A stretch of DNA of 64,000 nt from a virus. Made by a program: the position numbers and the translations under genes. Below the pieces are notes generated by a model. The model was not told the DNA's origin. It made no database searches and was given only the letters and a program-made list of their open reading frames with translations. Positions 20,071 to 50,293 of the stretch are shown piece after piece (position 1 is the stretch's first letter; the number at the start of each line of letters is the position of its first letter). Where the stretch lies: positions 46,249 to 110,248 of IMG/VR virus record IMGVR_UViG_3300047444_000617; one strand, 5' to 3'.

Positions 20071-21254
20071 CAGGCGGCCTGGGTATGAAGCCCGTCGGCT
20101 TCCTCGGCCTTGGGCCTGCGCGACACCTTCTTGGTGCCCGCGCTCTCGGCGGTCTCCAGGTCCTCCTCGGAGATGCTGCGCTCGTCGGCACGGGTGGATG
20201 CGGCCAGGACCTTCTGATAGATGCTGGCCAGCAGTTCGGGGTCCTCGCGCAGGCCGGTCAGCAGGGCGTCCTTGCCCTGCCAGCGCAGCACCGGCTTGCC
20301 CTTGGCGTCGTACTGTCCGTTGTCGATCTCGAAGAAGGCGCCCTTGCGCTGGATGACGTCGAAGAGAATGCCCATGGTCTGGATTTCCTTGGCGGTGTCG
20401 TACGCACCGCGCGGGAAGTTCAGGTAGGGCGCCGCCCGGAAGTAGGCGTCGATGGTGGCGATCTGCTGCGGGGCCGCCGACTTGTTCTTGATGGTCTTCA
20501 CCTTGACGACCTGGCCGACATTCACCTTGCCCTTGCCGGGCCGGGCCTCCTGAATCCATTCGTCGCGCCGGACCTCGACTCTGGTGTAGAAGGCGTAGTT
20601 CTTGGCGTTTCCGCCGGGAGTCGTGGTCGGCGTGCCGTGAGGGCTGAACTTGCCGATGGCGTCGCGGTACTGGTTGATGACGATGCCCAGCATCGGGCGG
20701 TCGTCGGGGTCGGTCATGCTGCGCTTGGTCGCGGCGCCGGACTTGCGGAAGAACTTGCCGGTGAGGCGGGCGCCGAGCGCCATGGTCGCCTCGTCCATGT
20801 CCTTGGCGGACTCCTCGTCCGGGATGAGTGCGGGGTAGGAGTCGAGCACGATCATGTCGACGGAGCGGGAGGCGGCGAAGTCCAGCATCGTCTGGTAGGC
20901 GAACTCCATCTGCTGGGTGGGGACGACCAGGACGCGGTTGTTGTCGACGCCCAGGGCCTCGGCCTGGTCGACGTCGTAGTGCTCGGCCGCGATCCACAGG
21001 GCGCAGAAGTTCGGGTCGAGTGCCTGGTTGGCGGCCAGCGTCTTGTAGACGATGAACGTCTTGCCGTGAGACTCCCGGCCGATCACCTCGACCCACTGAT
21101 TGCCTGGCCAGCCGCCACCGAGGGCGATGTCCAGGGACAAGGAGCCGGAGGTGAAGCGCTTGGCCACCTTCATCTCCGAGGCGAAGCAGATGGCCCCGGG
21201 GATCTCCTTGTTGACCTTGGCGATGAGTGCGAGGGCTTCCTTGTTGACGGTCAC
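20070..21254 (-). CDS. recA: RecA/UvsX recombinase
   Basis: SGSLSLDIALGGG, GRESHGKT Walker A, IVLDS, INQ.R, TPGGNA. Confidence 0.93.
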   Translation of the reverse strand: MTVNKEALALIAKVNKEIPGAICFASEMKVAKRFTSGSLSLDIALGGGWPGNQWVEVIGRESHGKTFIVYKTLAANQALDPNFCALWIAAEHYDVDQAEALGVDNNRVLVVPTQQMEFAYQTMLDFAASRSVDMIVLDSYPALIPDEESAKDMDEATMALGARLTGKFFRKSGAATKRSMTDPDDRPMLGIVINQYRDAIGKFSPHGTPTTTPGGNAKNYAFYTRVEVRRDEWIQEARPGKGKVNVGQVVKVKTIKNKSAAPQQIATIDAYFRAAPYLNFPRGAYDTAKEIQTMGILFDVIQRKGAFFEIDNGQYDAKGKPVLRWQGKDALLTGLREDPELLASIYQKVLAASTRADERSISEEDLETAESAGTKKVSRRPKAEEADGLHTQAA

Positions 21255-21283
21255 GGGCAGCCCCCGCAGGTATGAAGTGTCAT
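21251..21283 (-). CDS. 10-aa mini-ORF MTLHTCGGCP coupled to recA
   Basis: AGGAG RBS upstream; TGA overlaps recA GTG; contains CTTCATAC in LHT frame. Confidence 0.55.
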   Translation of the reverse strand: MTLHTCGGCP

Positions 21284-21401
21284 GTGGTGTTGTTTCTCCT
21301 GATCGCGTAACGCAGAACCGGTAGCCCCCATACCATATCTGGCAGGGAACTACCGGTCCAGCGATGTATCAACTAGTCAGACGAAGATCTTTTGATCAGT
21401 G

Positions 21402-23366
21402 TCAGGCGGTCACGAGGTCGACGTCCTCGCAGCCGCCAGCCGCCGAGCAGGCCAGTGACTGGCTGCCCTTGGTCTGGTCGTACGTCTCGTAGAACGCCAG
21501 GTCCGACCACTCCACCCGCTGGTTCTTGGACACCAGTTCCTCGTACTCCTCCTGCGTGCACTCCTCGTACGGGGCCTGCACGTAGGTGTGGTCGGAGTAG
21601 GGGAGGAAGGAGACGCCGGAGATCTCGTCGAGGCGGTCCAGAACCCAGGCGCCCACGTCCTTCCACTCCTCCTCGCGGACGGAGATCGTCACCGACGGTT
21701 TGTGCTCGCACCAGAAGGTCTGGTACGTCATCCACAACGCGAGGTGCCGCAGTGCCGAGACGTCGTCACGCACCAGGGCCTCCTCCCCGGCCCGCTGGGC
21801 GAAGGTGAACACCCACGCGGCGGAGTTGTAGGCGTCCTCCTCGTACGGGATCCCGGCGTCGATCAGCACGAACGCCACGGGGTCCTTCTTGTCCACGCGG
21901 ACCCGGCGCCGGTAGAAGCGGGCATGCTTCGGGTGGAGCCCGGACTCGCAGTCAACCAACTGGGACACCGTCCCCGAAGGCTTCACGGTGGTGGTCGCGG
22001 CGCTCTCAGGGATGCCGAGCCGGAGGGCTTCCTGCTTGTTGGCTTCCCGCACCACGATGCGCAGGTTGGCCAGCGCCAAGGCGGTCAGCCCTTGCCCCTT
22101 GCTCCCGTTCAGGTGCGGGTTTCCGAACACGCCGGTCAGGCTGACGCCCAGCAGCCGCTCCTCCTCCGCGTTCTGGCGCCACTCCTCCCGCAGGTACGGG
22201 TAGTCAGTCAGGGTGGCCTGCCAGGTGCCGAGGATGGTGGCCAGGCGGGCCTTGCGCGTCAGGTCGGCGACGGTGTCGTCCGGGCGGACCACGACCTCGG
22301 AGAGGTTGCAGAACGAGAACGGGCGCAGAATGATCTCGCTGCAGGGGTTGGTCCCGTAGTCGGTGTCCTGCGACCGGCGGCCGAACCTGGCGGCCTGCCG
22401 CTGGGCAGCACCACGGTGGAAGATCCCCCGCTCGCCGCTGCCGGAGGCGACCAGAGAGTCCCACTCCTGGTCGAACTCCTCGACGGTCGTCCTGTCGTCG
22501 TAGACGGCCGAGATGTTCGCCAGCGCGCGGTAGGGGTGCTCGACCCACCACTCCCCCGACTTCGCCTCGGCCATCTCGCGGTCGTCGAGGTCGGAGAGGC
22601 TGATCATGGCGGAGCGGCGGACGCCACCGACGACCACGACGGAGGCGATCTTGCACGCGATGTCGTGGACCTCGATCGGCCGGAACTTGCGACCGGCCGC
22701 CGCCTTGAACTTCTCCACGGTGAACTCGAAGAGGGAGTTGAGTGGTTCGGGGCCGGAGGCTCGCCCTCCGAAGGTATGAAGTCGGCTACCGGCCGGACGG
22801 ATCTCGGACAGGTCCCAGGTGGGGATCGCGCCGACCCGCAGATGCTTCAGCAACTCGCGGTAGGCCAGGCCCCAGCCCTCCTTGGAGTCCTCCACCTTGA
22901 TGACCACGGTGGGGACCTCCTCCAGCCGCTCAGCGACGCTGGGCAACTGGTCGACGTACCGCTTCTCGACGCTGTAGCCGACACCCGTGCCGTTCATGAG
23001 GATGTAGAGCAGTTCGTCCAGGGCGAGCGGGTCCTTCAACGGGAGGTACGAGCAGTTGAACCCGGCGATGTTCGATCGGTCCAGGGCGGGACCGGCCGTC
23101 ATCACCGCGCGCATGGACGGCATCACGTCGTGGTTGAGGATGGCCTGCCGGATCTCGAAGAACAGGTCGCCGTCCGGGGCGTATCGGTGCTTGTCCCGCA
23201 ACTGCACCTTCATGAACGTCATGTAGCGGTCGACGGTTTCCGTCCAGGTCTCGCGACGGTTCTCCTCCTCCAGCCACCGGCTGTAGCGGCTCTTCGCGAT
23301 GAAGGAACGGTAGGGGTCGGCGATGTCGCCGGAGAGGGTGAGCAAGGAGGTCACCAGTTGATCCAT
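21402..23366 (-). CDS. nrdJ: class II (adenosylcobalamin) ribonucleotide reductase
   Basis: PSMR, FNC, GTGVG, GGVRRSA, TNPCSEI, TVKPSGTVS, EHKPS. Confidence 0.92.
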   Translation of the reverse strand: MDQLVTSLLTLSGDIADPYRSFIAKSRYSRWLEEENRRETWTETVDRYMTFMKVQLRDKHRYAPDGDLFFEIRQAILNHDVMPSMRAVMTAGPALDRSNIAGFNCSYLPLKDPLALDELLYILMNGTGVGYSVEKRYVDQLPSVAERLEEVPTVVIKVEDSKEGWGLAYRELLKHLRVGAIPTWDLSEIRPAGSRLHTFGGRASGPEPLNSLFEFTVEKFKAAAGRKFRPIEVHDIACKIASVVVVGGVRRSAMISLSDLDDREMAEAKSGEWWVEHPYRALANISAVYDDRTTVEEFDQEWDSLVASGSGERGIFHRGAAQRQAARFGRRSQDTDYGTNPCSEIILRPFSFCNLSEVVVRPDDTVADLTRKARLATILGTWQATLTDYPYLREEWRQNAEEERLLGVSLTGVFGNPHLNGSKGQGLTALALANLRIVVREANKQEALRLGIPESAATTTVKPSGTVSQLVDCESGLHPKHARFYRRRVRVDKKDPVAFVLIDAGIPYEEDAYNSAAWVFTFAQRAGEEALVRDDVSALRHLALWMTYQTFWCEHKPSVTISVREEEWKDVGAWVLDRLDEISGVSFLPYSDHTYVQAPYEECTQEEYEELVSKNQRVEWSDLAFYETYDQTKGSQSLACSAAGGCEDVDLVTA

Positions 23367-23391
23367 TCAGTAGCGGTAGGTAAGGGGGACG

Positions 23392-23838
23392 TCAGCGAAT
23401 GACGTCTACGATGTGGCTGGGGTCGTAGTTGCTACGGCCCCCCGCTCCCCCGCTGGCGATCTGTCGGGCTGGCGTCGAGGGTGTCGACTTGTCACCGGAA
23501 GGGAGCCCGGCAGCGGTCTGCTGGAAGCGGGAGTTGTAGCCGCACGTGTAGCACTGGGCCATGGCCTGCGGCTGGCCATGCGGCTTGAAGAAGTCGTCGC
23601 CGCCGCAGTCGGGGCAGTGGGTGTTCTGCTTGGCGACCATGGCGCGAGCCGGGGCCTTCCCCGGCTGGGGAACTGGCACTGTCTGCTGAACCTGCTCGGG
23701 CGCGGGGTATGCCTGCTGTTGCTGGCCGGGGGATGCCCACCAGGGGCCACCGGTCGGCTGCGGCTGAGGCTGAGGGGCCTGGGCGGGGGCAGCCTGCGGA
23801 GGCGCCGCCCCCAACTTGTTTGCCCAGAAGTTACTCAC
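23392..23838 (-). CDS. Zn-ribbon protein with P/Q-rich N-terminus
   Basis: CPDC...CYTC. Confidence 0.65.
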   Translation of the reverse strand: MSNFWANKLGAAPPQAAPAQAPQPQPQPTGGPWWASPGQQQQAYPAPEQVQQTVPVPQPGKAPARAMVAKQNTHCPDCGGDDFFKPHGQPQAMAQCYTCGYNSRFQQTAAGLPSGDKSTPSTPARQIASGGAGGRSNYDPSHIVDVIR

Positions 23839-24289
23839 CGAACTGCGCTCCTTCCGTGTACGTGATGATGCCCATGTCGAAGAGGTTCGCGAGGATCGCG
23901 CCCACCCCGGCTTGGAGGACGAGGGAATGGTGACGCTGGAGTGACACCGCAGAATCCTCGTCCACCGAGACGCCCGAGTTAATCAGCATAGCCGAGGCGG
24001 TAATGCCTGAAACAAGCGGCGTGAGCAGTGCGAGAATTTCCCCCAGGGGTATCACCGCAGCCATTCTTTCGTGGCTGGATCGGTGCTCCATGTCGCGGAC
24101 GTCCGGGCTTTCCGGAGAGAGGTTCATGAGGGGCATCATCCCCTCGACGTCAGAGCAGGGCACGAGATCCCACAGCAGCCGCTTGGTGAGCATCTCCGGG
24201 GTGTACATGGTCACGCCCGAACCCTCGAACGAGTCGATGTCCTCGGGATTGTCCGAGTCGTCATTCTTTCGGTTGAAGAATCGCACTAC
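23831..24289 (-). CDS. hypothetical protein
   Basis: GTGA-type overlap region after polA; helical protein. Confidence 0.6.
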   Translation of the reverse strand, partial: VVRFFNRKNDDSDNPEDIDSFEGSGVTMYTPEMLTKRLLWDLVPCSDVEGMMPLMNLSPESPDVRDMEHRSSHERMAAVIPLGEILALLTPLVSGITASAMLINSGVSVDEDSAVSLQRHHSLVLQAGVGAILANLFDMGIITYTEGAQFGE

Positions 24290-26268
24290 TTCGCCTCCGA
24301 CCAACGGTCTACGATCTTGACGTCCGACGAGAGAGGGACGCGCAGGAGTTTCTGGATGTCCTCGCCGAGCATGGCCTCCTTGACCAGCGCGGCTGCTTCC
24401 TGTGCCCGGTCCTCCGGCGCGAGCACGACCAGCTCGTCGTGCACGGAGAGGATCAGGCGGATGTCGTCCGGCAGGAGGTTGCTCAGCCGGATCATCGCCA
24501 ACTTGATGAGGTCGGCCGCCGAGCCCTGGATGAGGCTGTTGACGGCCTGGCGCTCGGCACCCATACGCAGACCGTTGTTCTGCGACAGGATGAGCGGCAG
24601 GCGCCGCTTGCGGCCTAGCAGAGTGCGGATGTGCGGAGGGCGGCGGGATCGGCAGACACGGACGACGTCGTTCTTGAAGGCGTAGATCTCGGGGAACATC
24701 TTCTGGTGGATCTCCAGGAAGCGCTTTGCTTCCTTTACGGAAATTCCAGCCATCGAAGCGACCTTGTCCGGGCCCGCTCCATATACGACGGCGAAGTTGA
24801 TTCCCTTTGCCACCTGCCGAAGGTTGATGGCCTCTCGGTCACCGGCCTTGACGCGGGCCATGAATTCTTGCGGATCCTGGCCGATAAGGGCTGCGGCAGT
24901 GGCCGAGTGCGGGTCCACACCGTTGTGGAATCCCCGGTACAGCGCACCCTTTCCGATGAAGTGCGCGAGCACCACCAGTTCGATCTGCCCATAGTCGGCG
25001 ACGACCAGCTTGTAGCCGGACGGTGCGATGAACAGTCCTCGGATCCGCTTACCGAGTTCGGTGTCAGGTCGTGGGATATTCTGCAGGTTGGGTTCCCGGC
25101 AGGAGAATCGTCCGGTCACCGTTCCGTACTGAACGAAGTCGGCGTGAATGCGGCCGTCGAATATCCGGCAGGGCTTATCGGGGTCGCCCTCGACACCCAG
25201 GTATGCCAGCGGGTACCCGAGCAGCTTGGCGACTTCTGCGTAGTCGGCCAGGGCCTTGACGACCGGGTTGTTGGGGTGCGCTTCCAGGGAGTCGGAGTCG
25301 GTGGAGTAGTCGGCGAAGGTGAGGGTCTGCCCCGCGTCCCTCTTCTTCTTCCCGCCGTCGGTGGGCTTGAGAGGCTTGAGGCCCTGGCCGCCCTCGGACT
25401 TCGGGGCGTACAGGACAGCGGCCTTCTGCGCGGGCGCGTTGAGGTTGAAGCGCTGACCGGCGGCCCGGTAGATGTTGGCCTCGATGTCCACCAGCCGGGC
25501 GGACATGTCGCGGACCAGCTCCTCCATCGCCTCGACGTCGACCGGGGCGCCGGTGATGCCCATGTCGAGCAGCACGCCGAGCACATCCATCTCCAGGCGG
25601 CGGACGTGCGTGAGGTTCTGCTCCTCGATCCGGCGTTGGAACTGCTTCCACAGCAGCCAGGTGTACTTGGCGTCCATGTAGGCGTAGTGGGCGACCTTGG
25701 AGAACGTGAACTTCTCCACGCCGTTCTTGCCGACGTTCTCCTGGTCGTAGTCGACCTTGTAGTACCGCTTGACGAGTTCCTTCAGGCCCTTCTGCTTCAT
25801 GTTCTCGTCGAGCAGCCACTGCAGCACGATGGTGTCGGAGTAGTCCGGCGGTGCGATCTCGCCCCAGTACTTCGCGGTGCTGATCAGGTCGAAGGTCGCG
25901 TTGTGGGCGATCTTGATCTTGTCCTCGGCCCAGAACAGCGGCTTGAGGATGCTGAACACCTCGCTGGGCAGCATCTGCTGCGGCGGAGCGTCGAACACGG
26001 CCGGGATGGGGTCGAACTTCCCGGTGGCCTTGTTCTTCTTCTTCGTGGCCCTGGAGATCTGGACGTCGCCGTTGGGGTGGCCGAAGGGGATGGCGTAGGC
26101 CATGCCGTCAGTGGCCAGCGACATCCAGTTGGCGACGTTCTGGGTCGGGACGTTGCGGTTCTTGCCGATCGTCTCGATGTCGAAGGAGAAGGCCGGACGC
26201 TCCATGAAGCGCTCGACCACGGTATGAAGTCGGTCGGGGGTCAAGATGACCGAGTCGCGGATGATCAT
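24286..26268 (-). CDS. polA: family A DNA polymerase with 3'-5' exonuclease
   Basis: FDIET, HNATFD, YAYMD, TGRFS..PNLQNIP, ADYGQIE, KGINFAVVYG, IQGSAAD, VHDEL. Confidence 0.95.
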   Translation of the reverse strand: MIIRDSVILTPDRLHTVVERFMERPAFSFDIETIGKNRNVPTQNVANWMSLATDGMAYAIPFGHPNGDVQISRATKKKNKATGKFDPIPAVFDAPPQQMLPSEVFSILKPLFWAEDKIKIAHNATFDLISTAKYWGEIAPPDYSDTIVLQWLLDENMKQKGLKELVKRYYKVDYDQENVGKNGVEKFTFSKVAHYAYMDAKYTWLLWKQFQRRIEEQNLTHVRRLEMDVLGVLLDMGITGAPVDVEAMEELVRDMSARLVDIEANIYRAAGQRFNLNAPAQKAAVLYAPKSEGGQGLKPLKPTDGGKKKRDAGQTLTFADYSTDSDSLEAHPNNPVVKALADYAEVAKLLGYPLAYLGVEGDPDKPCRIFDGRIHADFVQYGTVTGRFSCREPNLQNIPRPDTELGKRIRGLFIAPSGYKLVVADYGQIELVVLAHFIGKGALYRGFHNGVDPHSATAAALIGQDPQEFMARVKAGDREAINLRQVAKGINFAVVYGAGPDKVASMAGISVKEAKRFLEIHQKMFPEIYAFKNDVVRVCRSRRPPHIRTLLGRKRRLPLILSQNNGLRMGAERQAVNSLIQGSAADLIKLAMIRLSNLLPDDIRLILSVHDELVVLAPEDRAQEAAALVKEAMLGEDIQKLLRVPLSSDVKIVDRWSEAK

Positions 26269-26513
26269 GCGACGACTACCTCGCTGGTGGTCTCGATCCA
26301 GACGTGGGCGCCGCAGTCGAGCGGCTGGTCCGGGCGGTAGACGACGCGGGCCACGACCTTGCCGTCGGCGTCGAGTACCGTGACGTCGTTGCCCTTGCGG
26401 TTCTGCTTGTAGTCCTTGGCGGTGATGACCGGCAGGCGCTCCTCCCCCGGCCCGGCCTTTCGATTCGCCTTGATGTGGTGCTGGTTGATGTGGATGCGGG
26501 TGGTGACGGCCAC
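26265..26513 (-). CDS. conserved phage protein
   Basis: IHINQH.IKAN...PL.CGA.VWIET; ATGA coupling to polA. Confidence 0.7.
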   Translation of the reverse strand: MAVTTRIHINQHHIKANRKAGPGEERLPVITAKDYKQNRKGNDVTVLDADGKVVARVVYRPDQPLDCGAHVWIETTSEVVVA

Positions 26514-26549
26514 GACGGGCTCCTGTGGTGGTGGCGGATGGGAAAGCTG

Positions 26550-26583
26550 AGGGGAGGCCCCAGCTCGGTGCTGGAACCTCCCC
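26550..26583 (-). terminator. terminator-like hairpin
   Basis: GGGGAGG..CCAGC / GCTGG..CCTCCCC. Confidence 0.55.
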
Positions 26584-26594
26584 GTCGGAGCCGG

Positions 26595-27398
26595 TCAGTC
26601 GTTGAGGATCTCGCGGGCGATCTGCTTGAGTTCGCTGCGCGAGTTCACCTTGAAGATCGTCTCGTCGTAGGCGTCGGCCTCCAGGGCGTCCAGGTCCACG
26701 TCGTCGGGGTCGACCTCCCAGTCGTCGTAGATGTCCCGCTCCTTGACCGGGATGATGTAGTAGTTGGTCTTGTTGTTCTTGGTCTCCTTGCGGGCGGAGA
26801 AGTACAGGTCGTCCCGGTTGAGGGGCTTGGTCTTGTCGCTCTTGGCGAAGTTCTTGAGGATGTCGGCGACCATCGGGCCGACCTTCCACACCTTGACCTT
26901 GGGGTCCTGGGGGTCGGTGAAGTCCACGACGTTGAAGCAGACCTGCTGCGAGGGCTTGTCACCGGCGTCGTCGCACAGGGGGCAGCGGACCTCCAGGCAC
27001 GTCCAGGATCGCTTGCCCTTGCGCTCGATCCAGTGCTGCAGGTAGACCCAGAACGGCTCGTCGTCGAGGAACTTGAACAGCACCTCGTCGCCGGTGACCT
27101 TGAAGTCGTCGGGGAAGGAGGAGGTGGCCTGCTTGGTCTTCTCGTACGAGCCCCATCCCCGGCCGCCGACGCTCGGTGAGGGCTCGTCGTCCTCCTCCTC
27201 GTCCTTGGCCGGACGGCGGGAGCGGCGGGAGGCGGGGGCCTCCTCGGTATGAAGCGACTCGCGGCGCGAGCCACGTCGCGAGCCCCTGGCGGGACGCTCG
27301 TCCTCCTCGTCGTCGTAGCGCTCGTCCTCCGGCTCCTCGGCCGGGCTGTACGCGTCGGTGCTGCGCGGGGCGCGACGGCGGGTGAGGGTACGGGCCAT
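26595..27398 (-). CDS. single-stranded DNA-binding protein (gp32-like)
   Basis: KFLDDEPF..Y.QHW, C...CPLC Zn site, acidic tail; start MARTL. Confidence 0.7.
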   Translation of the reverse strand: MARTLTRRRAPRSTDAYSPAEEPEDERYDDEEDERPARGSRRGSRRESLHTEEAPASRRSRRPAKDEEEDDEPSPSVGGRGWGSYEKTKQATSSFPDDFKVTGDEVLFKFLDDEPFWVYLQHWIERKGKRSWTCLEVRCPLCDDAGDKPSQQVCFNVVDFTDPQDPKVKVWKVGPMVADILKNFAKSDKTKPLNRDDLYFSARKETKNNKTNYYIIPVKERDIYDDWEVDPDDVDLDALEADAYDETIFKVNSRSELKQIAREILND

Positions 27399-41496: not shown

Positions 41497-43547
41497 CAGG
41501 TGACCGCCATTCCGACCTTGGTGGCGGTGCTGAGTGCCGAGTTGGTGATGGTGAGCACCTGTGTTCCGTTCCGAGAGATGGCGATGTTGCTGCCGGAGAA
41601 GGCGGCGGTGATCCGGTCACCGTCCTGGAAAGACTGCGAGTAGGTGTAGGTGCCGGTTACCGCGCCTGACTGGATCAGGTGCAGGGCTGTGCGCCCGGCC
41701 CGCCAGTAGTTGCTGGAGTCCTGCAGCCGGAAGGTGATGCCCTGCTTGAGGGTGTTACCGGGGTTGGTCAGGAACGTCGCCGACACCGTGCCGTCCGCGT
41801 GCCCGGGGATGGTGGCGATGGCTGCGGAGGCCCCGACCGGGTAGGCCGCGCCGCCCGAGTAGCCTCCCGAAGTCCACTGACCCACCGTCTCGGTCCAGGA
41901 CGCGGAGCCGAGGTCGGTGGTGCGCGTGGTCCAGTCGGACCAGTTCTCGCTGAAGGAGTCCAGGACGTTGTACGCGGGCAGGGCGTCGGAGTACAGGGCA
42001 GTGATCAGGGATCCGTGGGAGTCGTAGTACTCCACGAACGGATACACCGCGACCTGCTGCCCGGAGTAGGCCTGCGTGTAGCCGGACAGGCACATCTGGA
42101 CGCGCTCGTCGTAGCCCAGCGGCGTCCACTGGGCGTTTGCGGCGGTCGGAGAAGATGCTGCAGTTCCCCCGTAAGGCCCCTGCCCGTAGGAACCCTGCCC
42201 GAAGCCGACCGCGTCGATGACGGGAGGCAGTGCGTTCAGGCTGGCGGTGAGCGCCTGGTAGACCCGGCCGTGGTACAGCACCAGGTCACCGGGCTGGTAG
42301 TAGGTGTCAGCGTCCCACGCCTGATAGGCGTAGGGCAGCGGGATGCCCCACAGCACCGGCTGCTGCGGATCCATGGACGACTGTCCGGAGAGCCTGGCCA
42401 CCGAGCGCACGGCCATCGTCGCCGTCGTCCCGCCGGAGTTGGTGTTGCGCACCCACAGGGCGTTGCCCGCCTTGTCGTCGGGGTCGGTCGGGTTCTGCAC
42501 ACCGATACCCACCAGGACGCCGCCGGTACCTGGAGTGACACCTGCGGTGAAGGAGATCTCCTCCCACCCCGCGATGTTCCCGTTGGCGTTCACCAAGGTG
42601 GTGTCGGTGCCGTAGACCACGGCGGACCAGTAGGCGTTTGCACTGGCGGTACCGCTCGGAGCCTGGGACTGCCCGTACGCGCCGCTGGAACCGGCCTGGT
42701 ACAGGTAGGACCCGAACTCCACGCGCTCTCCGGAGGCGTAGTTCACCCCGGCGTCCCACTGCGGGTAGGTGGGGTGGTCGAAGTCGGCCTGGTCGTCGGA
42801 GAGCATCAGGTTGCTGCCGGGCAGCAGCTCGACGTCGTAGCCGGTGGTCTCGGAGATGACGCTGCGGATCTGTTCCAGCGTTCCCCGCTGCCGTCCCAGC
42901 GTCGCGGCGTCGCGCACCCGCTGGCGGAACAGGTAGGCCGGTGCCGACGCCTCGTACTGGATCCCGAACTGGGTGGCCAGCTCGGCGATGTTGTCGAAGT
43001 GCGTGCGCATCGCGTCGTTGGTGTAGCGGTTCGAGTCGAAGTAGCTCTTCACGATGTCGAAGCCGAAGCCGAAGATCGACAGGAACGGAGCCAGGTCGGT
43101 GTTGATCGTGTTGGTGTCGTCGGTGAGGTTGTTCCCGGGCTTGGTGTTGACCTTGTAGTAGTCCGGGACAAGGGAGTACAGCAGCTCGCCGTACCCGTTG
43201 TTCTTCGGCATCAGGGTCGAGACGGTGCCCGCACGGCTCCACTGGCCGGAAGCACTGATGAAGATCGTGTAGTACAGCCAGTGCCCTCCGGCCACACCCT
43301 GGTCCACGAACGACGTCGCGGTGTAGTTCTGGTCGAGCAGGATCTCCCCGTCGTTCTCGTTGACCGCCCAGCCGTAGCGGTTGCGGATCAGCCTCAGGGT
43401 GTCCCATGAGCCAGCCGGGGACTTCCAATCCAGCAGCACGGTGGAGTAGTCCGCAGGCGTGGCTGTGAAAGGGCTGACGTCGAACTCGGGGCGGACGTCC
43501 GCGCCGTAGGTCGCCAGTCCGTAGATGGATGAGCCATAAGTTCCCAT
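41496..43547 (-). CDS. baseplate wedge/tail protein (gpI-like) with CBM5/12-like repeats
   Basis: LYSLVPDYY...RGTLEQI...TGY; WDAGVNY..GERV, WDADTYY.PGDLV.Y.GRVYQA. Confidence 0.7.
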   Translation of the reverse strand: MGTYGSSIYGLATYGADVRPEFDVSPFTATPADYSTVLLDWKSPAGSWDTLRLIRNRYGWAVNENDGEILLDQNYTATSFVDQGVAGGHWLYYTIFISASGQWSRAGTVSTLMPKNNGYGELLYSLVPDYYKVNTKPGNNLTDDTNTINTDLAPFLSIFGFGFDIVKSYFDSNRYTNDAMRTHFDNIAELATQFGIQYEASAPAYLFRQRVRDAATLGRQRGTLEQIRSVISETTGYDVELLPGSNLMLSDDQADFDHPTYPQWDAGVNYASGERVEFGSYLYQAGSSGAYGQSQAPSGTASANAYWSAVVYGTDTTLVNANGNIAGWEEISFTAGVTPGTGGVLVGIGVQNPTDPDDKAGNALWVRNTNSGGTTATMAVRSVARLSGQSSMDPQQPVLWGIPLPYAYQAWDADTYYQPGDLVLYHGRVYQALTASLNALPPVIDAVGFGQGSYGQGPYGGTAASSPTAANAQWTPLGYDERVQMCLSGYTQAYSGQQVAVYPFVEYYDSHGSLITALYSDALPAYNVLDSFSENWSDWTTRTTDLGSASWTETVGQWTSGGYSGGAAYPVGASAAIATIPGHADGTVSATFLTNPGNTLKQGITFRLQDSSNYWRAGRTALHLIQSGAVTGTYTYSQSFQDGDRITAAFSGSNIAISRNGTQVLTITNSALSTATKVGMAVT

Positions 43548-43560
43548 GTCAGTTCAGCCC

Positions 43561-44232
43561 TTAGAACGGCACGACGACGGGGGCACCGATCTGCTCCCGG
43601 ATCATGGATGCGCTCAGGTGCAGGGATTCCACTGACAGGGTCTTGTTCAGCAGTGGGTGGTAGATGCGCATGTCGATGGTCCTACCGGCGGACACCCATC
43701 CCTGCCAGCCGATGTGCATGTGGGAGTTGCCGTCCGAGATCGGTGGGAGGTCCTGCGTCATGACGTCCTGCCCGCTGATGTTGATGGACAGCATGCGGTC
43801 CGAGCCGGTGGCGTTGGAACCGGTGGCGTTGGTCCATATGCAGCGGCCGAAGACCACCCACCAGCCGGGGCGGTTGGTGGTGATGCTGTGCCCGTTGAAG
43901 AGACCCTCGGGGTCGCTGAGAGCACCCGGCGCGGGCCAGGAGATGGTCTTCATCGGCACGCCGACGGCGGCCTTGTAGGAGTCCGAGGACTTGGTCAGGT
44001 AGATCACAGGCATACCGGCGCCGCGCTGCATGGCGTCCAGTCGAGCAGACACCGAAGGCCAGGTGTTGGTATGCATCTTCAGGCTGGTGTCCCGGTGGGG
44101 GTTGAGTCCCAGGGTCTGCTGGATGGCCAGGACCTCGTCCTGCAGGTTGTTCACGTGGGAGGCGTCGATGTCCTCCACCAGGTTCTTGTGGATCGTGAAA
44201 CTCTTGTACTGCTTGGGGTAGACGGCGGCCAT
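43561..44232 (-). CDS. minor tail protein
   Basis: IDASHVNNLQDEVLAIQQTLG; position in baseplate operon. Confidence 0.65.
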   Translation of the reverse strand: MAAVYPKQYKSFTIHKNLVEDIDASHVNNLQDEVLAIQQTLGLNPHRDTSLKMHTNTWPSVSARLDAMQRGAGMPVIYLTKSSDSYKAAVGVPMKTISWPAPGALSDPEGLFNGHSITTNRPGWWVVFGRCIWTNATGSNATGSDRMLSINISGQDVMTQDLPPISDGNSHMHIGWQGWVSAGRTIDMRIYHPLLNKTLSVESLHLSASMIREQIGAPVVVPF

Positions 44233-45710
44233 CAGCCGATCCCTCCGGTCATGGTGATGTTGGTGATGTTTCCGACCTTCGGGATCTCCCAGGCGCGGAA
44301 TACGACGTCAGCGGTGCCGGTCTGCGCGGCGTCCGCGCGGGCGATCATGGGAATGTCGACGTAGCGCACTCCGTCCACAGCGAGCAGGGCCTTGTAGAAG
44401 TCGGACAGGGTCAACCGCATGCCGAAATCGACGTTGGAGAAGCCGAGCATGTTCTTCAGGGCCTGCTGCACGTCGTAGAGCACGGAGGCGCGCGAGTAGC
44501 GGGGCCAGCATTCGACTGTGACCGGGGTGGTGCTGTTGCCGATGTTCACGCCGACTACTGAAGGGCCTGCCACGGTGACGGTGACGCCTGCCAGTGCCTT
44601 GCCCTGGAGGGTCTGCAGCACGGCGGCCAGCACCGCGCTGCTGGGCTGACCACCATCGGATCCGATGACATACACCGTGACGGAGGTGTAGGTGGCAGCG
44701 ACCGCGTTCGCCCGCACGATGCCGGGTACGGTCAGCGCCAGGTCGGAGAAGTCGGCGAGGGTGACGCAGCGGTCCTGGGTGCGGAAGATGCGGGGTGCGT
44801 TCGAGCGGATCTGGTCGTTGGTCTCGGGGTCCGCTCCGCCGGTCATGGCCGAGGAGATCGCGCTGCCGTCGCTGTCCTGCGCCAGCGTGACGCCGGGCAG
44901 GTTCGCGCTGGCGATGGATGTGACGACGCCCGCGTTGACGTTGCCGATGGTGCCGCCACCCACGCGGTAGGTGGCGTAGATGGTCAGTTGGTTGGTGGGG
45001 ATGGCGCCGTTGAGGTTGTCGCCGAAGCGGATCCAGGTCGCGCCGGAGTCGTCGAGGTAGGTGGTGAAGACCCTGTCCTGGGGATCGGCGTCCACCAGGT
45101 AGGTGATGTACGTCCACTCGGTAAGGGTGTCGACGTCGTCCACGTAGACCTGAACCGTCCCGCTGATGACGGGTACGTCCGGCAGCCGGAACTCCTGCAC
45201 CGGCAGGCCGGTCGACGTACCGACGTTCACCTGGGTGCGTGTGACGCCCTGGGTGACCGACACCGTGGCGGTGCCTCCGTTGATGGGGACCAGGATGTCG
45301 GAATCGGTTTCGTAGGTGACGGGGCTGTCGATGGTGTCCAAGTACTCGGTGACCACCTGGGTGCCTGCGGGCACCAGTACGGCCGGGCCGGGGTTGGATG
45401 TCTGGAAGGTCACCGTGCCGGTGGCAGGCACCCCGTTGCTCGGGCTGTAGCCGAGCAGGTCGGCGATCTGCAGCAGTGACATGCGCTGCGTGGCGGTCGG
45501 AAGGAAGGACTCCTGCTGGAGGCGGTCACCGTAGTAGGACAGGTTGTCTCCGAGGTAGGAGAACAACTCCACCATGAGTACACCGAAGTCCCCCTCGGAG
45601 GAGGGCACCCATTGCGGGTAGGCGCGCGAGGCGAAGTCCAGCAAGGAGGACTTGAAGCCCTCGTAGTCGCGGCTGGTGTAGTCGATAGCCGGTGGCGTGG
45701 GGGTACTCAT
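44232..45710 (-). CDS. baseplate J/gp6-like wedge protein
   Basis: IDYTSRDY, GGADPET..IR, RCVTLADF. Confidence 0.9.
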   Translation of the reverse strand: MSTPTPPAIDYTSRDYEGFKSSLLDFASRAYPQWVPSSEGDFGVLMVELFSYLGDNLSYYGDRLQQESFLPTATQRMSLLQIADLLGYSPSNGVPATGTVTFQTSNPGPAVLVPAGTQVVTEYLDTIDSPVTYETDSDILVPINGGTATVSVTQGVTRTQVNVGTSTGLPVQEFRLPDVPVISGTVQVYVDDVDTLTEWTYITYLVDADPQDRVFTTYLDDSGATWIRFGDNLNGAIPTNQLTIYATYRVGGGTIGNVNAGVVTSIASANLPGVTLAQDSDGSAISSAMTGGADPETNDQIRSNAPRIFRTQDRCVTLADFSDLALTVPGIVRANAVAATYTSVTVYVIGSDGGQPSSAVLAAVLQTLQGKALAGVTVTVAGPSVVGVNIGNSTTPVTVECWPRYSRASVLYDVQQALKNMLGFSNVDFGMRLTLSDFYKALLAVDGVRYVDIPMIARADAAQTGTADVVFRAWEIPKVGNITNITMTGGIG

Positions 45711-46126
45711 CCGCTGATGACCTCGCTTACGGTGCCGCCCACGCTGACCACGGCGGTGTTGGTCTGCTGCGCGAGGCTGCTCGGGGAAGCCCCGGCCTCA
45801 CGGCGTATGTAGTCGACCTCGATTCGCGCGAGGGACATCTGCGAGGCGTCAGGAATAGGGGTTGCCTTCTGGAGTACAACGCCGGGCTCATAGGCGGTGA
45901 ATGCAGCGGTCACGGCACGGCTGATTTCCTGCGCGACAAAGGACGCGTCAGGGTCGAAAAGCAGATCCGCCACAGGCACCCCGTAGTTCGGGAGCATGAC
46001 TCTCTCCCCCGGCTGCGTGCCGACGAGAGCATTCACGTGCTGGGCGATCTGCCTGTCCGGATTCGTCTCGACGGCGATTGTCCCGTCGGGAGCTAGGCGA
46101 AAAGGAATGGCGATCTCGGTAGGCAT
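45707..46126 (-). CDS. baseplate GPW/gp25 protein
   Basis: TQPGERVMLPNYG...LLF...YEP. Confidence 0.9.
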   Translation of the reverse strand: MPTEIAIPFRLAPDGTIAVETNPDRQIAQHVNALVGTQPGERVMLPNYGVPVADLLFDPDASFVAQEISRAVTAAFTAYEPGVVLQKATPIPDASQMSLARIEVDYIRREAGASPSSLAQQTNTAVVSVGGTVSEVISG

Positions 46127-46186
46127 GCTTGCATTCTCCCAGGGCGGAAGAATTGCTTGTTAGCGCCTACCGAGACCGCCGGGAGA

Positions 46187-48046
46187 TCAGACGAGGTTGC
46201 CGATCGGGATCTTCGCGTTGATCATGAACGTGTCGTTCACCGCGATCGTCGGCAGCCCCTGACCCCGGAACTCGCCACTGCTGTTCACGTAGGTGGCGAT
46301 CGACGCCGTGGCCGTGGACATCCGGATGGCACCACCCGCAGGACTGACGTCACCCCCGAGGCTGACGCCGGGAAGGCCGGTGGCGATCAGAGCACTCGGA
46401 GAGGTGCTGGTGGCATGGAAGACGCCGACCAGGTGGATGTTGTCCTCCCCGTCTCGACGCCACCGGAGGTTCGGGTAGGCACCACCGATGCCTGTGCCCT
46501 GCGCCCATCCGGTACCCATGACCGCGTCGGTCCAGGACTCCGCGTTACCAGAGAGGTCGGCCTTCACCACCGCGCCGCTGACCAGCAGGTTGGCCGCGTA
46601 GGTACCGGTGCGCTCGGTCACCGTTACGCTCGGCGGGAGGGGGAGTGTCGAGTCCCCTTCGGAGATGGTGAGCCGCGCCGCGAGGTTGGGGCCGCCACCT
46701 CCCTCGAAGCCGGAGTCCACCCGGACAGCACCTGGGCCGTCGCTGATCATGGTCGACGAGGCGCCGGTGTTGTTCGCTCCGGCGTCGGTGAAGACCAGTC
46801 CGCCACCAGACAGAGAGGTGGTGGACGTGCCACTGGTCGTGGAGATGTCCCCGTTGGCGCCACCGATGTCGGCCGTCACGGCGCCCGTCGAGTCGTACAC
46901 CTTCATGCTGTTGTCACCCGCCTCGTTCAGCGTGATGCGCTCGCCGGACGTGGCTGTCTGGATGGTGGATCCGGTGATCGTCTTGCCGTCGATGGCGGTC
47001 GCGGACAACTGGGATGCGGAGATCGTCCCCACCGTGATCTTGGTGGCGTCGATGCTGGCGATGACACCACTCGACGCGGTGATCGTCCCGGCCGCCATCT
47101 CGTTGGCCGTCACAGAGTTCGCCGCGATGTCACTGGTACCTGCCTGCTTGGGAGTGTCGGAGTTCGCGCCCGAAGGGGCGGAGGCGATGCCGACCTTGGA
47201 GTACGCGATCAGCCGGTAGTTGTAGGAGTTGGCGTAGTTCTGCACCGAGTCGTAGAGGAAGTCCGGGCCGGTCAGGGTGCCTACGACCACCGGGGCGGGG
47301 AACGCCGGATCCGTGTCGCGCTCGACCTGGACGTGGGAGAAGATCAGTGGCATCGCTGTGCCGGTGTGGTCCAGCCCGTCCCAGGTAACGCGCAGGCCGC
47401 CCAGGACACCCAGGACTGCGGGCGTGGAGGGGACCGGCGGCGGAGTCGTGGAGGACGCGGTGGTGATGTCCGTGGAGGACCACAGGGAGGCGTTGCCGGA
47501 GTTGTCGAGGGCCTGGACGCGGACGAAGAAGTCCACGCCGGTATGAAGGCCGTCGAAGACGACGAGGGTGTCCTCAGTGATCTGGCCGCCGGACCAGTTG
47601 GTGCCGTCGTAGGAGGTCTGCACGACGTAGTGCGACAGGTCGACGAGGTTGGTCCCGTCCTGGTTCTCCGTCGGCGCAGTCCAACTGGCCGTCACGTGCG
47701 CCCGCGTGCTGCCGTCGTCGGCGATGTACTGCACGGTCGACAGTGTCAGCGCGGTCGGCTGCTTGGGAGGCATCGAGTCGTACTCAAGACCCCCTACCTG
47801 GTCCTGTACTTCCTTGATGCCCAGCGGGGAGTACACCGGCTGGGTGACGTCACCACCGGAGAACTGCACCCACACGTTCTGTCCGGCCGCAGGCACGGTG
47901 TTCGTCGGGGAGGCCGGAACCGCCCAGGCGCTCTCCGCTCCGCCCAGGATCTGAGGTATGAGCAGGGTGACGCGGGCCTCCTTGAGGGGGTCCACGTTGT
48001 TGGCAACCGTCCCTGGATACATGCCAAGAACCGGGTCAGACGACAT
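46187..48046 (-). CDS. baseplate spike (gpV/gp5 OB-fold) with FN3 and beta-helix repeats
   Basis: DPL...RV...P...WA.P...VWVQF.GGD...P. Confidence 0.8.
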   Translation of the reverse strand: MSSDPVLGMYPGTVANNVDPLKEARVTLLIPQILGGAESAWAVPASPTNTVPAAGQNVWVQFSGGDVTQPVYSPLGIKEVQDQVGGLEYDSMPPKQPTALTLSTVQYIADDGSTRAHVTASWTAPTENQDGTNLVDLSHYVVQTSYDGTNWSGGQITEDTLVVFDGLHTGVDFFVRVQALDNSGNASLWSSTDITTASSTTPPPVPSTPAVLGVLGGLRVTWDGLDHTGTAMPLIFSHVQVERDTDPAFPAPVVVGTLTGPDFLYDSVQNYANSYNYRLIAYSKVGIASAPSGANSDTPKQAGTSDIAANSVTANEMAAGTITASSGVIASIDATKITVGTISASQLSATAIDGKTITGSTIQTATSGERITLNEAGDNSMKVYDSTGAVTADIGGANGDISTTSGTSTTSLSGGGLVFTDAGANNTGASSTMISDGPGAVRVDSGFEGGGGPNLAARLTISEGDSTLPLPPSVTVTERTGTYAANLLVSGAVVKADLSGNAESWTDAVMGTGWAQGTGIGGAYPNLRWRRDGEDNIHLVGVFHATSTSPSALIATGLPGVSLGGDVSPAGGAIRMSTATASIATYVNSSGEFRGQGLPTIAVNDTFMINAKIPIGNLV

Positions 48047-49187
48047 TTATGTCCTCCAGAATGCTGCTCTCCCAAAACTGCTTATCGCGCAGTACAGCCG
48101 GGACAGCGTTGAATTTGAAGCGCTTGTTCGCATCGCTTTTAAAGGTTACCGTGTACGGCTGGTCTCTTTCTGCATCCACGGTGGTGGTGAAGAGCAGGCC
48201 GGAATTCGAGGAGGACCGGTTGATTATGTGCTTCGTCCCGGTAACCATCCATCTGCCTGAACGGTCGGAGGACACCGCTGTTCCGCCAATGCCGATAAGC
48301 GTCCCCGGCGACACCTTGGCGGTGCCGTACAGTGTGGCTTCCATCGTGATCCAGCCACGCGAGGCGAGAGTCCGCGCCTGCGCAATGGCCTGTGCGTCCG
48401 CATAGTTGGTGACCGACCGGGAGGTGTTGATGGTGTTGAGGAACGTCGTCGTTCCCGCGTCGGCGCCCACGGATGCCTTGATGACCTTTCCGGTCTTGGC
48501 GTCCAGCCCGGAAATAGTCGATGTGCCAGTCGTTCCATTTGACCGGGGCACCATTGTCCCGGTGAGGATCGACATATCCTGGAGGGTGTCGAATACTCCA
48601 GGGGTCTGACTCTTGGAGAATACCGGAATGTCCTGCGACTTCTGCCCGAGCAGGAGAATTCTGGGGTCAAGGAAGTAAAGGGTCGCCCCTTCGACCCAGA
48701 AACGGAATCCCGTCTCGTCGGCAAGGTCCTGCACCAGTTTGAAATCCGACACGCCCGCCTGGGCCCAGTACGTCAGCCGTCGCAGGCTCGGTGAGATGAC
48801 GGTGCGCAGCCCGTTCTCGCGGGCCACCTGCCGCACGATCGCGGTGGGCGAGGTGTTCTTCCACGAGCGCGTGCGCTGGGTGTTCATGGGCAGCGTGGTG
48901 CCGATGCACACGTAGCGGGTCGTCACGCTGCGACCGCCGGAGGACGCCAGGGCGCTGGAGTGGTGGACGTAGCCGTACCAGCGCGCGGTGTCCTGGGGAG
49001 CGCGCCCGTAGTCCAGCACCACGGGGGTCAGCTCCGCGTAGGCGGCGTTCTTGGTGGGAGGGGTGGACACGTCGAGCAGGGCCATCGAGTGCACGCCGAA
49101 GGCCTCCCGCACCTCCAGGCGCGAGAGGTACCCGGTGACCTTCTCACCGCGCATGGACAGGTTCGCGAACGGCGTCTGCTCAGACAC
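48036..49187 (-). CDS. baseplate hub (gpD/gp27-like)
   Basis: Q..SDFKLVQDLADETGF; synteny. Confidence 0.75.
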   Translation of the reverse strand: MSEQTPFANLSMRGEKVTGYLSRLEVREAFGVHSMALLDVSTPPTKNAAYAELTPVVLDYGRAPQDTARWYGYVHHSSALASSGGRSVTTRYVCIGTTLPMNTQRTRSWKNTSPTAIVRQVARENGLRTVISPSLRRLTYWAQAGVSDFKLVQDLADETGFRFWVEGATLYFLDPRILLLGQKSQDIPVFSKSQTPGVFDTLQDMSILTGTMVPRSNGTTGTSTISGLDAKTGKVIKASVGADAGTTTFLNTINTSRSVTNYADAQAIAQARTLASRGWITMEATLYGTAKVSPGTLIGIGGTAVSSDRSGRWMVTGTKHIINRSSSNSGLLFTTTVDAERDQPYTVTFKSDANKRFKFNAVPAVLRDKQFWESSILEDINVV

Positions 49188-49452
49188 TGGGGATCCTGAT
49201 GATCTGCCCGGGGGTCAGGACCGTCCAGTCCATGACCTCCGGGTTGGCGTCGGCGATCTCCCACCACAGCCGGGCATCCCCGTAGTACTGCTGCGCGAGC
49301 AGGTCGATGCGGTCGGCCGACGTCAACTGGTGGTAGGTGAACCGGAAGGCCCACTCACGCTGCTGGGACGGCACGACAGTCAGGTTGGTACCGCGCCCGG
49401 AGGAGACCAGGTTCAGCGACGACTGCGCGTACCGCGAGTTGCTGGTGATCAT
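49180..49452 (-). CDS. LysM/gpX-like baseplate protein
   Basis: DRIDLLAQQYYGDARLWWEIADANP...PGQIIRIP. Confidence 0.85.
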   Translation of the reverse strand: MITSNSRYAQSSLNLVSSGRGTNLTVVPSQQREWAFRFTYHQLTSADRIDLLAQQYYGDARLWWEIADANPEVMDWTVLTPGQIIRIPSV

Positions 49453-50207
49453 CGCCCGCCCTTTCCACTCGAACCACCGGCGAAGGAGTCCGGAGTCACA
49501 CCGGCAGGCAGCGAGCCGAAGGCCTGGAACTCGCTGTTGCCCTTGGGCTTCGGGAGCAGTTGCAAGGTGATGGACACCTGGCAGCGGGACGGAATCATCT
49601 GCTGGGTCCAGTGGGTGTACTGGATATCCAGTTCCTGGATGACCCCGTAGTAGTTCAGCGTGTCGCCGATGATGACGTACACGGGGACATAGAGCATCGG
49701 CCCGGCCGCGTCGAAACTGAACTGCCCCTGCCGGAACGACTTGGAGGAGTCTCCTGTGGCCGCGTTTCCCGTGCCGGTCACGTCCACGGAAGCGGAAATA
49801 CCCGTGATCTTGTAGAGCAGGGAGATGTCCCACCCGACACCGAGCGCCGGAACGAATACGCTTTCCGCGCCCGACACCCGCGAGGAGTCCCACAATTCGT
49901 AGGTCCGGTCGAAAAGCAGGTCGAACTGCACCGTCTGCTGCAGAGGCATCAGGTAGTCCTGCGCCGTCACGTCATTCGGGTTGATCGCGTTTTCGTCCGC
50001 CAGCACCGCCGGGTTCACGGAATGGGAGGCGGCCAGGACGCTCGGGTTGTAAAGGAAGTTGCAGCGATAGCGAACCCCGCCGACCGGCTTCTCCTGAATG
50101 ATGAAGCCGCGACTGAGTGTCTTTCCGCCACCGACCAGAGACTGCAGGCCCGGCAGTTTAGTTATCCTGGGGTCGAACTTTCCGTTGTCCTGAATAACCG
50201 TAGCCAT
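49449..50207 (-). CDS. tail tube initiator (CIS tube-like)
   Basis: FLYNPS...F.LLFDRT...YTHW...P.R; start MATVIQ. Confidence 0.7.
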   Translation of the reverse strand: MATVIQDNGKFDPRITKLPGLQSLVGGGKTLSRGFIIQEKPVGGVRYRCNFLYNPSVLAASHSVNPAVLADENAINPNDVTAQDYLMPLQQTVQFDLLFDRTYELWDSSRVSGAESVFVPALGVGWDISLLYKITGISASVDVTGTGNAATGDSSKSFRQGQFSFDAAGPMLYVPVYVIIGDTLNYYGVIQELDIQYTHWTQQMIPSRCQVSITLQLLPKPKGNSEFQAFGSLPAGVTPDSFAGGSSGKGGR

Positions 50208-50293
50208 CAGGCACCCACCGCAGCAGAGACTCGGTGAGAGTTTCGGAAGTGGGGCCCAGGGCCCCACGTATGAAGTCGGTCAGTGATAGCCAT
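50207..50293 (-). CDS. 28-aa bridging mini-ORF MAITDRLHTWGPGPHFRNSHRVSAAVGA
   Basis: TAATG overlap with tape measure stop and TGATG overlap with next start; CTTCATAC in LHT frame. Confidence 0.6.
   Translation of the reverse strand: MAITDRLHTWGPGPHFRNSHRVSAAVGA

Follow-up and report, generated by a model that had tools for sequence, protein, structure and literature searches.

In the Cluster A mycobacteriophages L5 and Bxb1 and in the Streptomyces phages R4/phiJoe, immunity repressors are associated with stoperators. Dozens of short asymmetric copies of one sequence are spread across the genome of a temperate actinophage and oriented with transcription (PMC6550527, PMC9283540, PMC10276819). 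The consensus differs between close relatives, and the trans-acting factor is presumed to co-evolve with it. A word with the same distribution, CTTCATAC, occurs in the window, a stretch of 64,000 nucleotides (nt) that forms bases 46249-110248 of the 110,248-bp virus record IMGVR_UViG_3300047444_000617, which has direct terminal repeats. Four of its copies lie outside the long genes, each within a short open reading frame (ORF) that ends on the start of the next gene. These four ORFs are tentatively read here, with a likelihood a little short of even, as translated leader or bridge mini-genes that place a messenger RNA (mRNA)-level signal ahead of coupling-dependent genes, the signal co-evolving with a phage factor. 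Unlike stoperators, the word is 8-10 nt rather than 13-14 bp long, and all copies share one codon phase within reading frames, with none in untranslated DNA. A gp71-type repressor was not found, and the single gene that co-varies resembles an RNA-binding HicA protein.

The architecture of the four ORFs is similar to leader-peptide attenuation of the ermC / cat type (ATGA or TGATG junctions). There, the short ORF has a start codon of its own and stops on the next start, and just beyond the critical leader position comes a hairpin that overlaps the start codon or ribosome-binding site of the gene that follows. The critical element of the present leaders differs in being a fixed nucleotide word common to ~37 long-gene sites instead of a stalling peptide; the hairpins are short and mostly not significant, and no inducer is known here. 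In Streptomyces, bldA / TTA control depends on a single rare codon and a dedicated tRNA. The present word likewise places rare codons in chosen genes of a high-GC actinomycete system, and expression could hinge on decoding. Unlike TTA, however, it comprises three codons with fixed wobble bases and flanks, has no matching CUU tRNA, and has a middle codon that is switched at all sites by lineage. Words of 7-9 nt, in 10-20 copies on one strand and at positions conserved in relatives, also mark the single-strand nick sites of T5, phiKMV and tf (PMC3517423). The tf sites stay on the top strand although the genes converge (PMC3517423), whereas here an opposite-strand gene carries the word on its own sense strand, in frame.

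The window contains 27 copies of CTTCATAC, all on the minus strand, against 0.41 expected. Long genes with a high GC content at third codon positions (GC3) hold 23 of them and mini-ORFs the other four, and all are read as CTT-CAT-ACN. Across the 110-kb genome the word is CTTCATAY, with 41 sense copies in a single frame (35 ending in C, six in T); no other one-mismatch variant is enriched genome-wide. Close relatives fall into two mutually exclusive classes, bearing either CTTCATAY (C type) or CTTAATAY (A type), with the same polarity and ~40 copies per genome. The genome under study is denoted G000, with relatives numbered from G001 and loci from L001. Weak flanks lengthen the word to sG-CTTCATAC-C; position 9 is C in 37/37 copies of the A-type relative G003, and in the word generally G is favoured at -1 and the AY is fixed. 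As RNA the word reads CUUCAUACC or CUUAAUACC, with the general form (G)CUU-[C/A]AU-AY(C). The tripeptide LHT is encoded by other codons only three times, which is the chance level; the word is therefore a nucleotide-level one, and a peptide-level motif was rejected.

Exactly one reversed copy is present in each complete genome. It belongs to a small, conserved divergent gene next to the integrase, is in frame close to the N-terminus, and co-varies with the motif type of the genome (G000-G003 and 15 further loci). As this copy is sense and in frame on the divergent gene, the motif follows the transcript and not one DNA strand, and chi, pac or nick-type polarity was rejected for the same reason. 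An anti-motif small RNA was considered for the lone reverse copy (GGUAUGAAGCG on the main strand) and rejected, as the copy belongs to a conserved divergent protein gene with a GC3 of 0.8. A programmed frameshift site was also rejected: G CUU CAU does not form a slippery site for a -1 shift, and for a +1 shift re-pairing of tRNA-Leu is possible only in the C form (UUC), not in the A form (UUA). The location of motif sites inside essential genes was counted against it as well. Genic sites are enriched at gene ends (first 13 codons, 5/28, p = 0.02; last 13 codons, 6/28, p = 0.004), which fits either regulatory placement or tolerance of change at protein termini.

The earlier note on this DNA, made from the sequence alone, had claimed that all four non-genic copies stand in frame in short ORFs coupled to the next gene. 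This is confirmed: each copy is read CTT-CAT-ACN in an ORF with its own start codon and a stop overlapping the next gene's start. The coordinates, peptides and overlaps given there are also correct, except that the start downstream of the bridge ORF is at 50207, not 50210 (Table 1). The recA leader has an AGGAG 12 nt ahead of its ATG, and its TGA overlaps the recA GTG at 21254 (GTGA). This GTG start is supported by the alignment of Pfam RecA profile position 30 to residue 31. The ORF beginning at 34658 opens with GTG 6 nt past GGAGGAG and ends in a TGATG overlap with the ATG at 34599. The initiator leader has a weak Shine-Dalgarno (SD) sequence, GAGAGAG, ahead of its ATG, and its TGA overlaps the initiator TTG at 36469 (TTGA); PHROG replication-initiation profiles align from residue 1 of that TTG start. 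The bridge ORF is joined on both sides: its start overlaps the tape-measure-like gene's stop in TAATG, and its own stop overlaps the ATG at 50207 in TGATG. An internal motif copy is missing from three of the four downstream genes; the exception is recA, with a second copy at 20083-20090, six codons ahead of its stop. The whole genome has 11 SD-led short ORFs (>=10 codons) with a stop overlapping a long-gene start, of which 4-5 have an in-frame motif where motif density predicts ~0.3, a ~15-fold enrichment.

Conservation of the mini-ORFs and of their frame in related phages had been proposed as a check. Although the sequences have changed, the ORFs retain their frame and length in up to 11 related genomes, and the indels (-6 nt, +189 nt) are all in frame. 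The 10-codon recA leader is present in all C-type relatives examined (L001-8, 19, 21, 23, 29, 30, 42; G001, 2, 11-14), with a variable end portion and a retained NTGA overlap. In A-type relatives the same SD-ATG-x-CTT-AAT-ACC is fused in frame as the start of RecA, with CTTAATAC at the position homologous to the leader motif in G003. The leader is therefore probably the old RecA start, severed by a frameshift, and it was probably retained as a ribosome delivery site. The initiator leader has 15 codons and a variable peptide in six genomes (G000, G001, G002, G003, G010, G012) and 13 codons in G009 (in-frame 6-nt deletion); its stop always overlaps a GTG or TTG start, and G003 has CTTAATAT at the site of the motif. 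The 34658 ORF encodes 19 amino acids (aa) in G000, 22 in G003, 29 from stop to stop in G009 and 82 in G001/G002, where the N- and C-termini are unchanged around an in-frame 63-codon insertion. Its motif site reads CTTCATAT in G001/G002 and CTTAATAC in G003.

At the junction between the tape-measure-like and tube genes, a 28-codon bridge is found in G000 and G012, with a diverged peptide in the latter, and an unrelated 9-codon bridge, MRLHTRAVA, in G001, whose tape-measure motif copy is decayed (CTTCATGC). No bridge exists in G002 and G003, where the two genes overlap directly by TAATG or TGATG. Two different motif-bearing bridges have thus arisen at the same junction in C-type genomes, both in frame 0. 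The bridge ORF of G000 and G012 opens with a copy of the tube-gene start (ATGGCTA), and in the window it is formed by an 84-nt insert. An extra mini-ORF, M-T-R-L-N-T-C-P-R..., lies upstream of the SNF2 helicase in A-type genomes.

The two motif classes are related by a concerted switch. At ~27/41 sites, A-type genomes have CTTAATAY at the homologous position, and in the RecA tree the motif clade is monophyletic and requires at least two C/A switches. At C-type-specific sites the A type has (L/Q/H)-H-T in normal codons (e.g. TTGCACAC), and at A-type-specific sites the C type has L-N-T in normal codons (CTGAACAC). Nearly every A-type locus among L149-L159 (HicA-like gene region) keeps one CTTCATAY copy near the genome end, which could be a relic or a cross-type site; it is CTTCATAC where read (G006), and the site is common to G001 and G002.

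In 11 genomes or long contigs, ~400/~400 sites are in frame 0 of a gene or short ORF. The earlier note had put the chance of four in-frame copies at about 1/81, a figure that is invalid since all three frames are open around the sites in this GC-rich DNA. It is further undercut by the recA case, which descends from an in-frame N-terminus, and by the exclusion of CTTAATAY from two of the three frames. TTA occurs only twice in 26,000 codons, and CTTAATAY can be encoded only in frame 0 because it gives TAA in one other frame and TTA-ATA in the second. Frame 0 is thus forced in the A type, and sites were inherited into the C type, so that coding constraint explains much of the frame lock. For the C form a codon-cost explanation of the frame was rejected, as the expected copies in frames 0, 1 and 2 are 0.02, 0.13 and 0.02. 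At least eight C-type-specific sites are all in frame 0, despite ~19 positions in other frames (Phe-Ile, [SPTA]-Ser-Tyr) that could be reached by synonymous change.

Outgroup genomes show related preferences. In-frame CTT-CTA occurs 37 times in G016 (L161-L165) against 1.3 expected, mostly followed by G, and GAT-CTA and CAT-CTA are in excess as well. In G017 (L166-L171), CTT-CAT is found in frame 13 times (0.3 expected) and the codon after it varies; in the Phe-Ile frame, where it carries no cost, the same hexamer is present 32 times. G004 and G005 show neither enrichment of a strand-specific word nor an excess of rare codon pairs. Coding constraint leaves the C-type-specific gains, the C-type bridges and the outgroup codon pairs unexplained, and there is moderate evidence that codon phase matters in itself. 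The proposal that the signal is read during translation therefore stands in part: the coupled conserved leaders, the frame-0 gains and the outgroup in-frame codon pairs favour it, while much of the frame lock stems from coding constraint and ~27/41 sites were inherited at homologous positions. A sequence-specific protein that binds or cuts mRNA, or a DNA-binding repressor, could give the same pattern.

Among ~115 genes compared in four C-type and four A-type genomes, g104 alone splits sharply by motif type. It encodes a 69-aa protein (genome 10029-10238, outside the window) with 67-71% identity within types, 39-41% across types and a 14-aa insertion in the A type; the neighbouring genes show no type-specific split. 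The g104 allele agrees with the motif type in 19/19 loci with flanks. The C-terminus of g104 itself carries the motif, as ...AGLHI in the C type and ...KGLNTRP in A-type G003. Its top Pfam match is HicA_toxin (E = 0.052), one homologue bears the Joint Genome Institute (JGI) name of a YcfA/HicA-like family, and TGGNH is invariant. The AlphaFold2 (AF2) model has a predicted local distance difference test (pLDDT) score of 75 and an alpha-beta-beta-beta-alpha order (H9-20, E24-28, E32-36, E42-47, H53-65). Foldseek gives 1WHZ as its top match (probability 0.97, 33% identity) and also lists other HicA chains, and in the protein Atlas g104 has a template modelling (TM) score of 0.77 to HicA clusters. 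These several weak lines suggest that g104 has a HicA fold. It is prophage-borne, as are HicA mRNA interferases with their double-stranded-RNA-binding domain (dsRBD) fold (PMC10865869).

Both outgroups with an in-frame CTT-pair excess, G016 and G017, have diverged HicA-like genes together with Rnl1 and PNKP; G004 and G005 have neither these genes nor a CTT-pair excess. The HicA-like gene is not singled out by its presence or absence, since genomes with and without it differ in a whole block comprising the integrase, the Rnl1 RNA ligase, PNKP and RlaP. The RNA-repair cassette of this block (T4-type RNA ligase 1, PNKP and the RlaP nucleotidyltransferase; genome 24458-28494, L084:4458-8494) lies outside the window. 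It is found in all motif-bearing genomes and in G016 and G017, and is absent from the motif-less G004 and G005. An XRE-HTH/DUF5753 gene and its DUF397 partner, a WhiJ/AbaA-like pair typical of Streptomyces, are located at genome 14079-15261 on the plus strand and contain no motif copy. The XRE gene does not track motif type (66-88% identical in the C type versus 75% in the A type), and XRE/DUF5753 and other opposite-strand regulators were rejected as the reader on this basis.

In all four leaders a GC-rich predicted hairpin starts 0-3 nt past the motif. The 106-nt bridge region has a fold z-score of -3.99, with 0/200 shuffles as good, and the start of its leader is predicted to pair with the tube-gene start. 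Predicted folds at 20 genic sites have a mean z of -1.06 and a mean energy of -16.6 kcal/mol, compared with -0.36 and -14.0 kcal/mol for 20 control segments from the same genes. With all sites taken together, pairing at bases 12-16 after the motif start exceeds the background level (0.2 versus 0.4 unpaired). This signal beside the motif is modest and suggestive only.

The build of the ORFs and its conservation, the locking of the motif to the sense strand and to one frame, its concerted switching between C and A, and its correlation with an allele are all observed; from them the following RNA-level action, coupling logic and reader may be inferred. The signal would act on mRNA in translated regions, usually with a hairpin 0-4 nt beyond it. 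The downstream genes (recA, the replication initiator, the 147-aa gene and the tail-tube-like gene) start on a codon overlapping the leader stop and, because their own SD sequences are weak or hairpin-masked, are proposed to depend on ribosomes finishing the leader. An event at the motif, whether binding, cutting or pausing, would decide leader read-through, which would in turn decide the opening of the hairpin and the making of the next gene product. The ribosome may read the signal in register with translation, or reading may run beside translation. The reader would be phage-encoded and co-evolve with its sites, and the best candidate is the HicA-like RNA-binding or RNA-cutting protein g104. 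The fuller version, in which a three-codon word and hairpin, set in one frame in ~40 core genes and the leader mini-genes, are read on translating mRNA by a HicA-like RNase whose specificity changes with the sites, is possible but doubtful.

Several points weigh against this account. The fit of g104 to Pfam HicA_toxin is 14.1 bits, under the cut-off of 27. No HicB partner of g104 was found, and the downstream 114-aa gene has no informative match. HicA proteins are not known to have 8-10 nt specificity, frame awareness or cultivated target sites in their own genome. They are described as translation-independent toxins of only loose sequence specificity (PMC10865869), properties that would leave a frame lock unexplained. 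The HicA-like link comes from essentially one tree branch and two outgroups, i.e. few independent events, and toxin-like genes turn over quickly in prophages. The folds of the other three leaders are not significant against shuffles (z +1.3 to -0.6), and no consensus RNA structure was found over the sites. The recA leader can also be read as a relic of a frameshifted N-terminus.

The main rival, judged unlikely, moves the signal to the DNA. The word would be an asymmetric double-stranded site of the stoperator kind, at which a phage repressor blocks RNA polymerase and sets the specificity of immunity; the frame lock would reflect coding constraint and inheritance, and the mini-ORFs would serve only to maintain translational coupling where sites were inserted. 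The phage looks temperate: it encodes a tyrosine integrase and a large serine recombinase, and the close relative G003, which comes from an isolate genome, is flagged as a provirus. A search of the genome with L5 gp71 at E <= 10 gave no match (a distant analogue is possible), and no gene for a DNA-binding protein follows motif type. Some ~40 asymmetric sites that point along transcription, and a distinct consensus in co-occurring relatives as in Cluster A mycobacteriophages and R4/phiJoe (PMC6550527, PMC10276819), are what this view expects. However, R4-type Streptomyces phages are reported to have intergenic sites, whereas none of the ~400 sites in the 11 genomes lies outside an ORF. The restriction of CTTAATAY to frame 0, the enrichment at both protein termini, as expected where proteins tolerate change, and the freedom from motif copies of opposite-strand genes likely to be expressed in lysogeny (XRE/DUF5753, LuxR-like) can all be explained in this way. 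It accounts less well for the C-type-specific sites, which are confined to frame 0 when other positions were synonymously convertible, and for the in-frame CTT-CAT excess of G017, where the cost-free Phe-Ile frame was available. No conserved -35 or -10 partner was found in the +/-30 nt flanking the motif, scans near two of the leaders gave no promoter or terminator, and neither a phage sigma factor nor a single-subunit RNA polymerase was found, the RNA_pol control search being uninformative. A literature search for the four octamers returned nothing relevant.

There are two further alternatives. In a pure decoding signal, the strict form of the earlier note's view and held to be distinctly unlikely, no dedicated sequence-specific protein is needed: the ribosome would read CUU-NAU-AY as three codons, of which two successive G:U-wobble codons ahead of a hairpin would make it pause or abort, tuned by the supply of phage tRNA-Asn and tRNA-His. 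A hairpin whose base is ~11-12 nt away from the first base of CUU would be located at the mRNA entrance once CUU occupies the P site. The total frame lock in 11 genomes suits this mechanism, as does the element common to all four lineages, an in-frame pair of CTT and a rare codon (CTT-CAT, CTT-AAT, CTT-CTA); the fixed wobble-position and outer bases (position 9, G at -1, AY) argue instead for recognition of a nucleic-acid word. The phages do carry tRNA-Asn(GTT), and an unusual tRNA-His(GTG) is present in 3/5 C-type and 0/3 A-type genomes, but G000 has the CAU-type motif without tRNA-His, CUU is read by no phage tRNA, and tRNA supply does not readily account for ~27 sites changing in concert from a His to an Asn codon. 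The other alternative, that the mini-ORFs are ordinary small phage genes or relics with no relay role and have the motif for whatever reason other genes have it, is likewise improbable. The recA leader would be a frameshifted N-terminus, matching the in-frame N-terminus of A-type RecA, and the bridge of G000/G012 an insertion duplicating the tube start; the growth of the 34658 ORF (motif at 34637) to 82 aa in G001 and G002 is like that of a small gene, and stop/start overlaps are common in phage genomes. This does not account for the ~15-fold enrichment of the motif in coupled mini-ORFs, nor for an initiator leader that keeps its length, start and stop while its peptide varies. The lack of any bridge in G002 and G003 fits ordinary ORFs, yet two separate motif-bearing bridges occur at that junction, the G001 gain being found where the tape-measure copy decayed, and predicted hairpins cover downstream starts.

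Relay of a frame-registered mRNA signal by the leaders, if it occurs, would put genes for replication, recombination and the tail under a dispersed code that evolves with its reader, and the leaders would be simple, testable handles on that control. A HicA-read switch, if true, would be of a post-transcriptional kind not yet described and could play at the RNA level the part of an immunity repressor; HicA-like cuts might then be reversible through the RNA-repair enzymes of the phage, PNKP and Rnl1. Outside repressor-operator systems it is rare for one base to have changed at ~27 homologous sites on two or more occasions, and the concerted switch allows a direct test of how a nucleic-acid word co-evolves with its reader. 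Should the DNA-level rival be right, stoperator-type silencing would be extended to a new ~100-kb Streptomyces-type phage group and coding constraints would be seen to shape stoperator-type sites.

Table 1. Positions, within the window, of the four leader or bridge ORFs, their motif copies, predicted hairpins and adjoining genes.
Feature	Coordinates	Strand	Description
recA leader ORF MTLHTCGGCP	21251..21283	-	10 codons; ATG ACA CTT CAT ACC ... CCG TGA
Motif copy CTTCATAC	21270..21277	-	codons 3-5 of recA leader
Predicted 5-bp hairpin GCGGG/CCCGU	21253..21267	-	starts 3 nt past motif; 3' arm includes recA GUG
recA, 394 aa	20070..21254	-	Pfam RecA, E = 2.7e-40
19-codon ORF VPHEQRALHTRLRTTAERT	34599..34658	-	bridges DnaC-like loader gene and next gene
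Motif copy	34630..34637	-	inside 34658 ORF
Predicted 7-bp GC-rich hairpin	34607..34626	-	starts 3 nt past motif; 3' arm GCGGAGC includes GGAG SD of 34599 gene
147-aa gene	34156..34599	-	no family match (Pfam, PHROG); no internal motif copy
Initiator leader ORF MPLPLHTYRLGRAGN	36466..36513	-	15 codons; ATG start
Motif copy	36494..36501	-	inside initiator leader
Predicted 7-bp hairpin CCGCCUU-GGC-AGGGCGG	36474..36490	-	starts 3 nt past motif; ends 4 nt ahead of TTG
Replication initiator (HTH_36; O-like / DnaD-like)	35429..36469	-	Pfam; no internal motif copy
28-codon bridge ORF MAITDRLHTWGPG...VGA	50207..50293	-	between tape-measure-like and tail-tube-like genes
Motif copy	50268..50275	-	inside bridge ORF
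Predicted 8-bp hairpin GUGGGGCC-CUG-GGCCCCAC	50249..50267	-	directly past motif
Tail-tube-like gene	49449..50207	-	weak CIS_tube match; no internal motif copy
Tape-measure-like gene	50293..53262	-	NlpC/P60 and SLT domains; motif copy at 50450-50457
Other 23 CTTCATAC copies	6003..62527	-	sense strand, frame CTT-CAT-AYN of long genes
CTTCATAT copies	38394, 5263, 3683	-	sense strand, frame CTT-CAT-AYN of long genes

The window is 65% GC, and its minus strand holds nearly all genes. The closest cultured relatives are the Streptomyces phages BRock, GiJojo and Alone3, with a RecA identity of ~47%, and uncultured relatives are numerous; a megablast of 20 kb against cultured phages gave no close relative. 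The two lytic domains of the tape-measure-like protein, NlpC/P60 and SLT, are carried together on the one polypeptide. The genes for tRNA-Asn(GTT), Leu(CAA) and Pro(TGG) are common to the C- and A-type genomes checked, and that for Phe(GAA) to all of them except G011. The tRNA-His(GTG) is 86 nt in length with a long variable arm (G001, sense 76989-77074), and is also found in G002 and G012.

In the early region (window 1-3300, genome 38-50 kb) many genes have an extended form of ribosome site, CCCCACACCAGGAGG, ahead of them, among them those starting at window 1218, 261, 3253 and 1693. This site resembles the start-associated sequences of Cluster K mycobacteriophages (PMC3203893). The 22-kb early region with CCCCACACCAGGAGG ribosome sites contains no CTTCATAY copy. 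The in-frame codon pair CGA-CGA is over-represented in G000, G003 and G004 (11-13 observed versus 1.3-1.8 expected), and is a separate phenomenon because it is also present in the motif-less G004.

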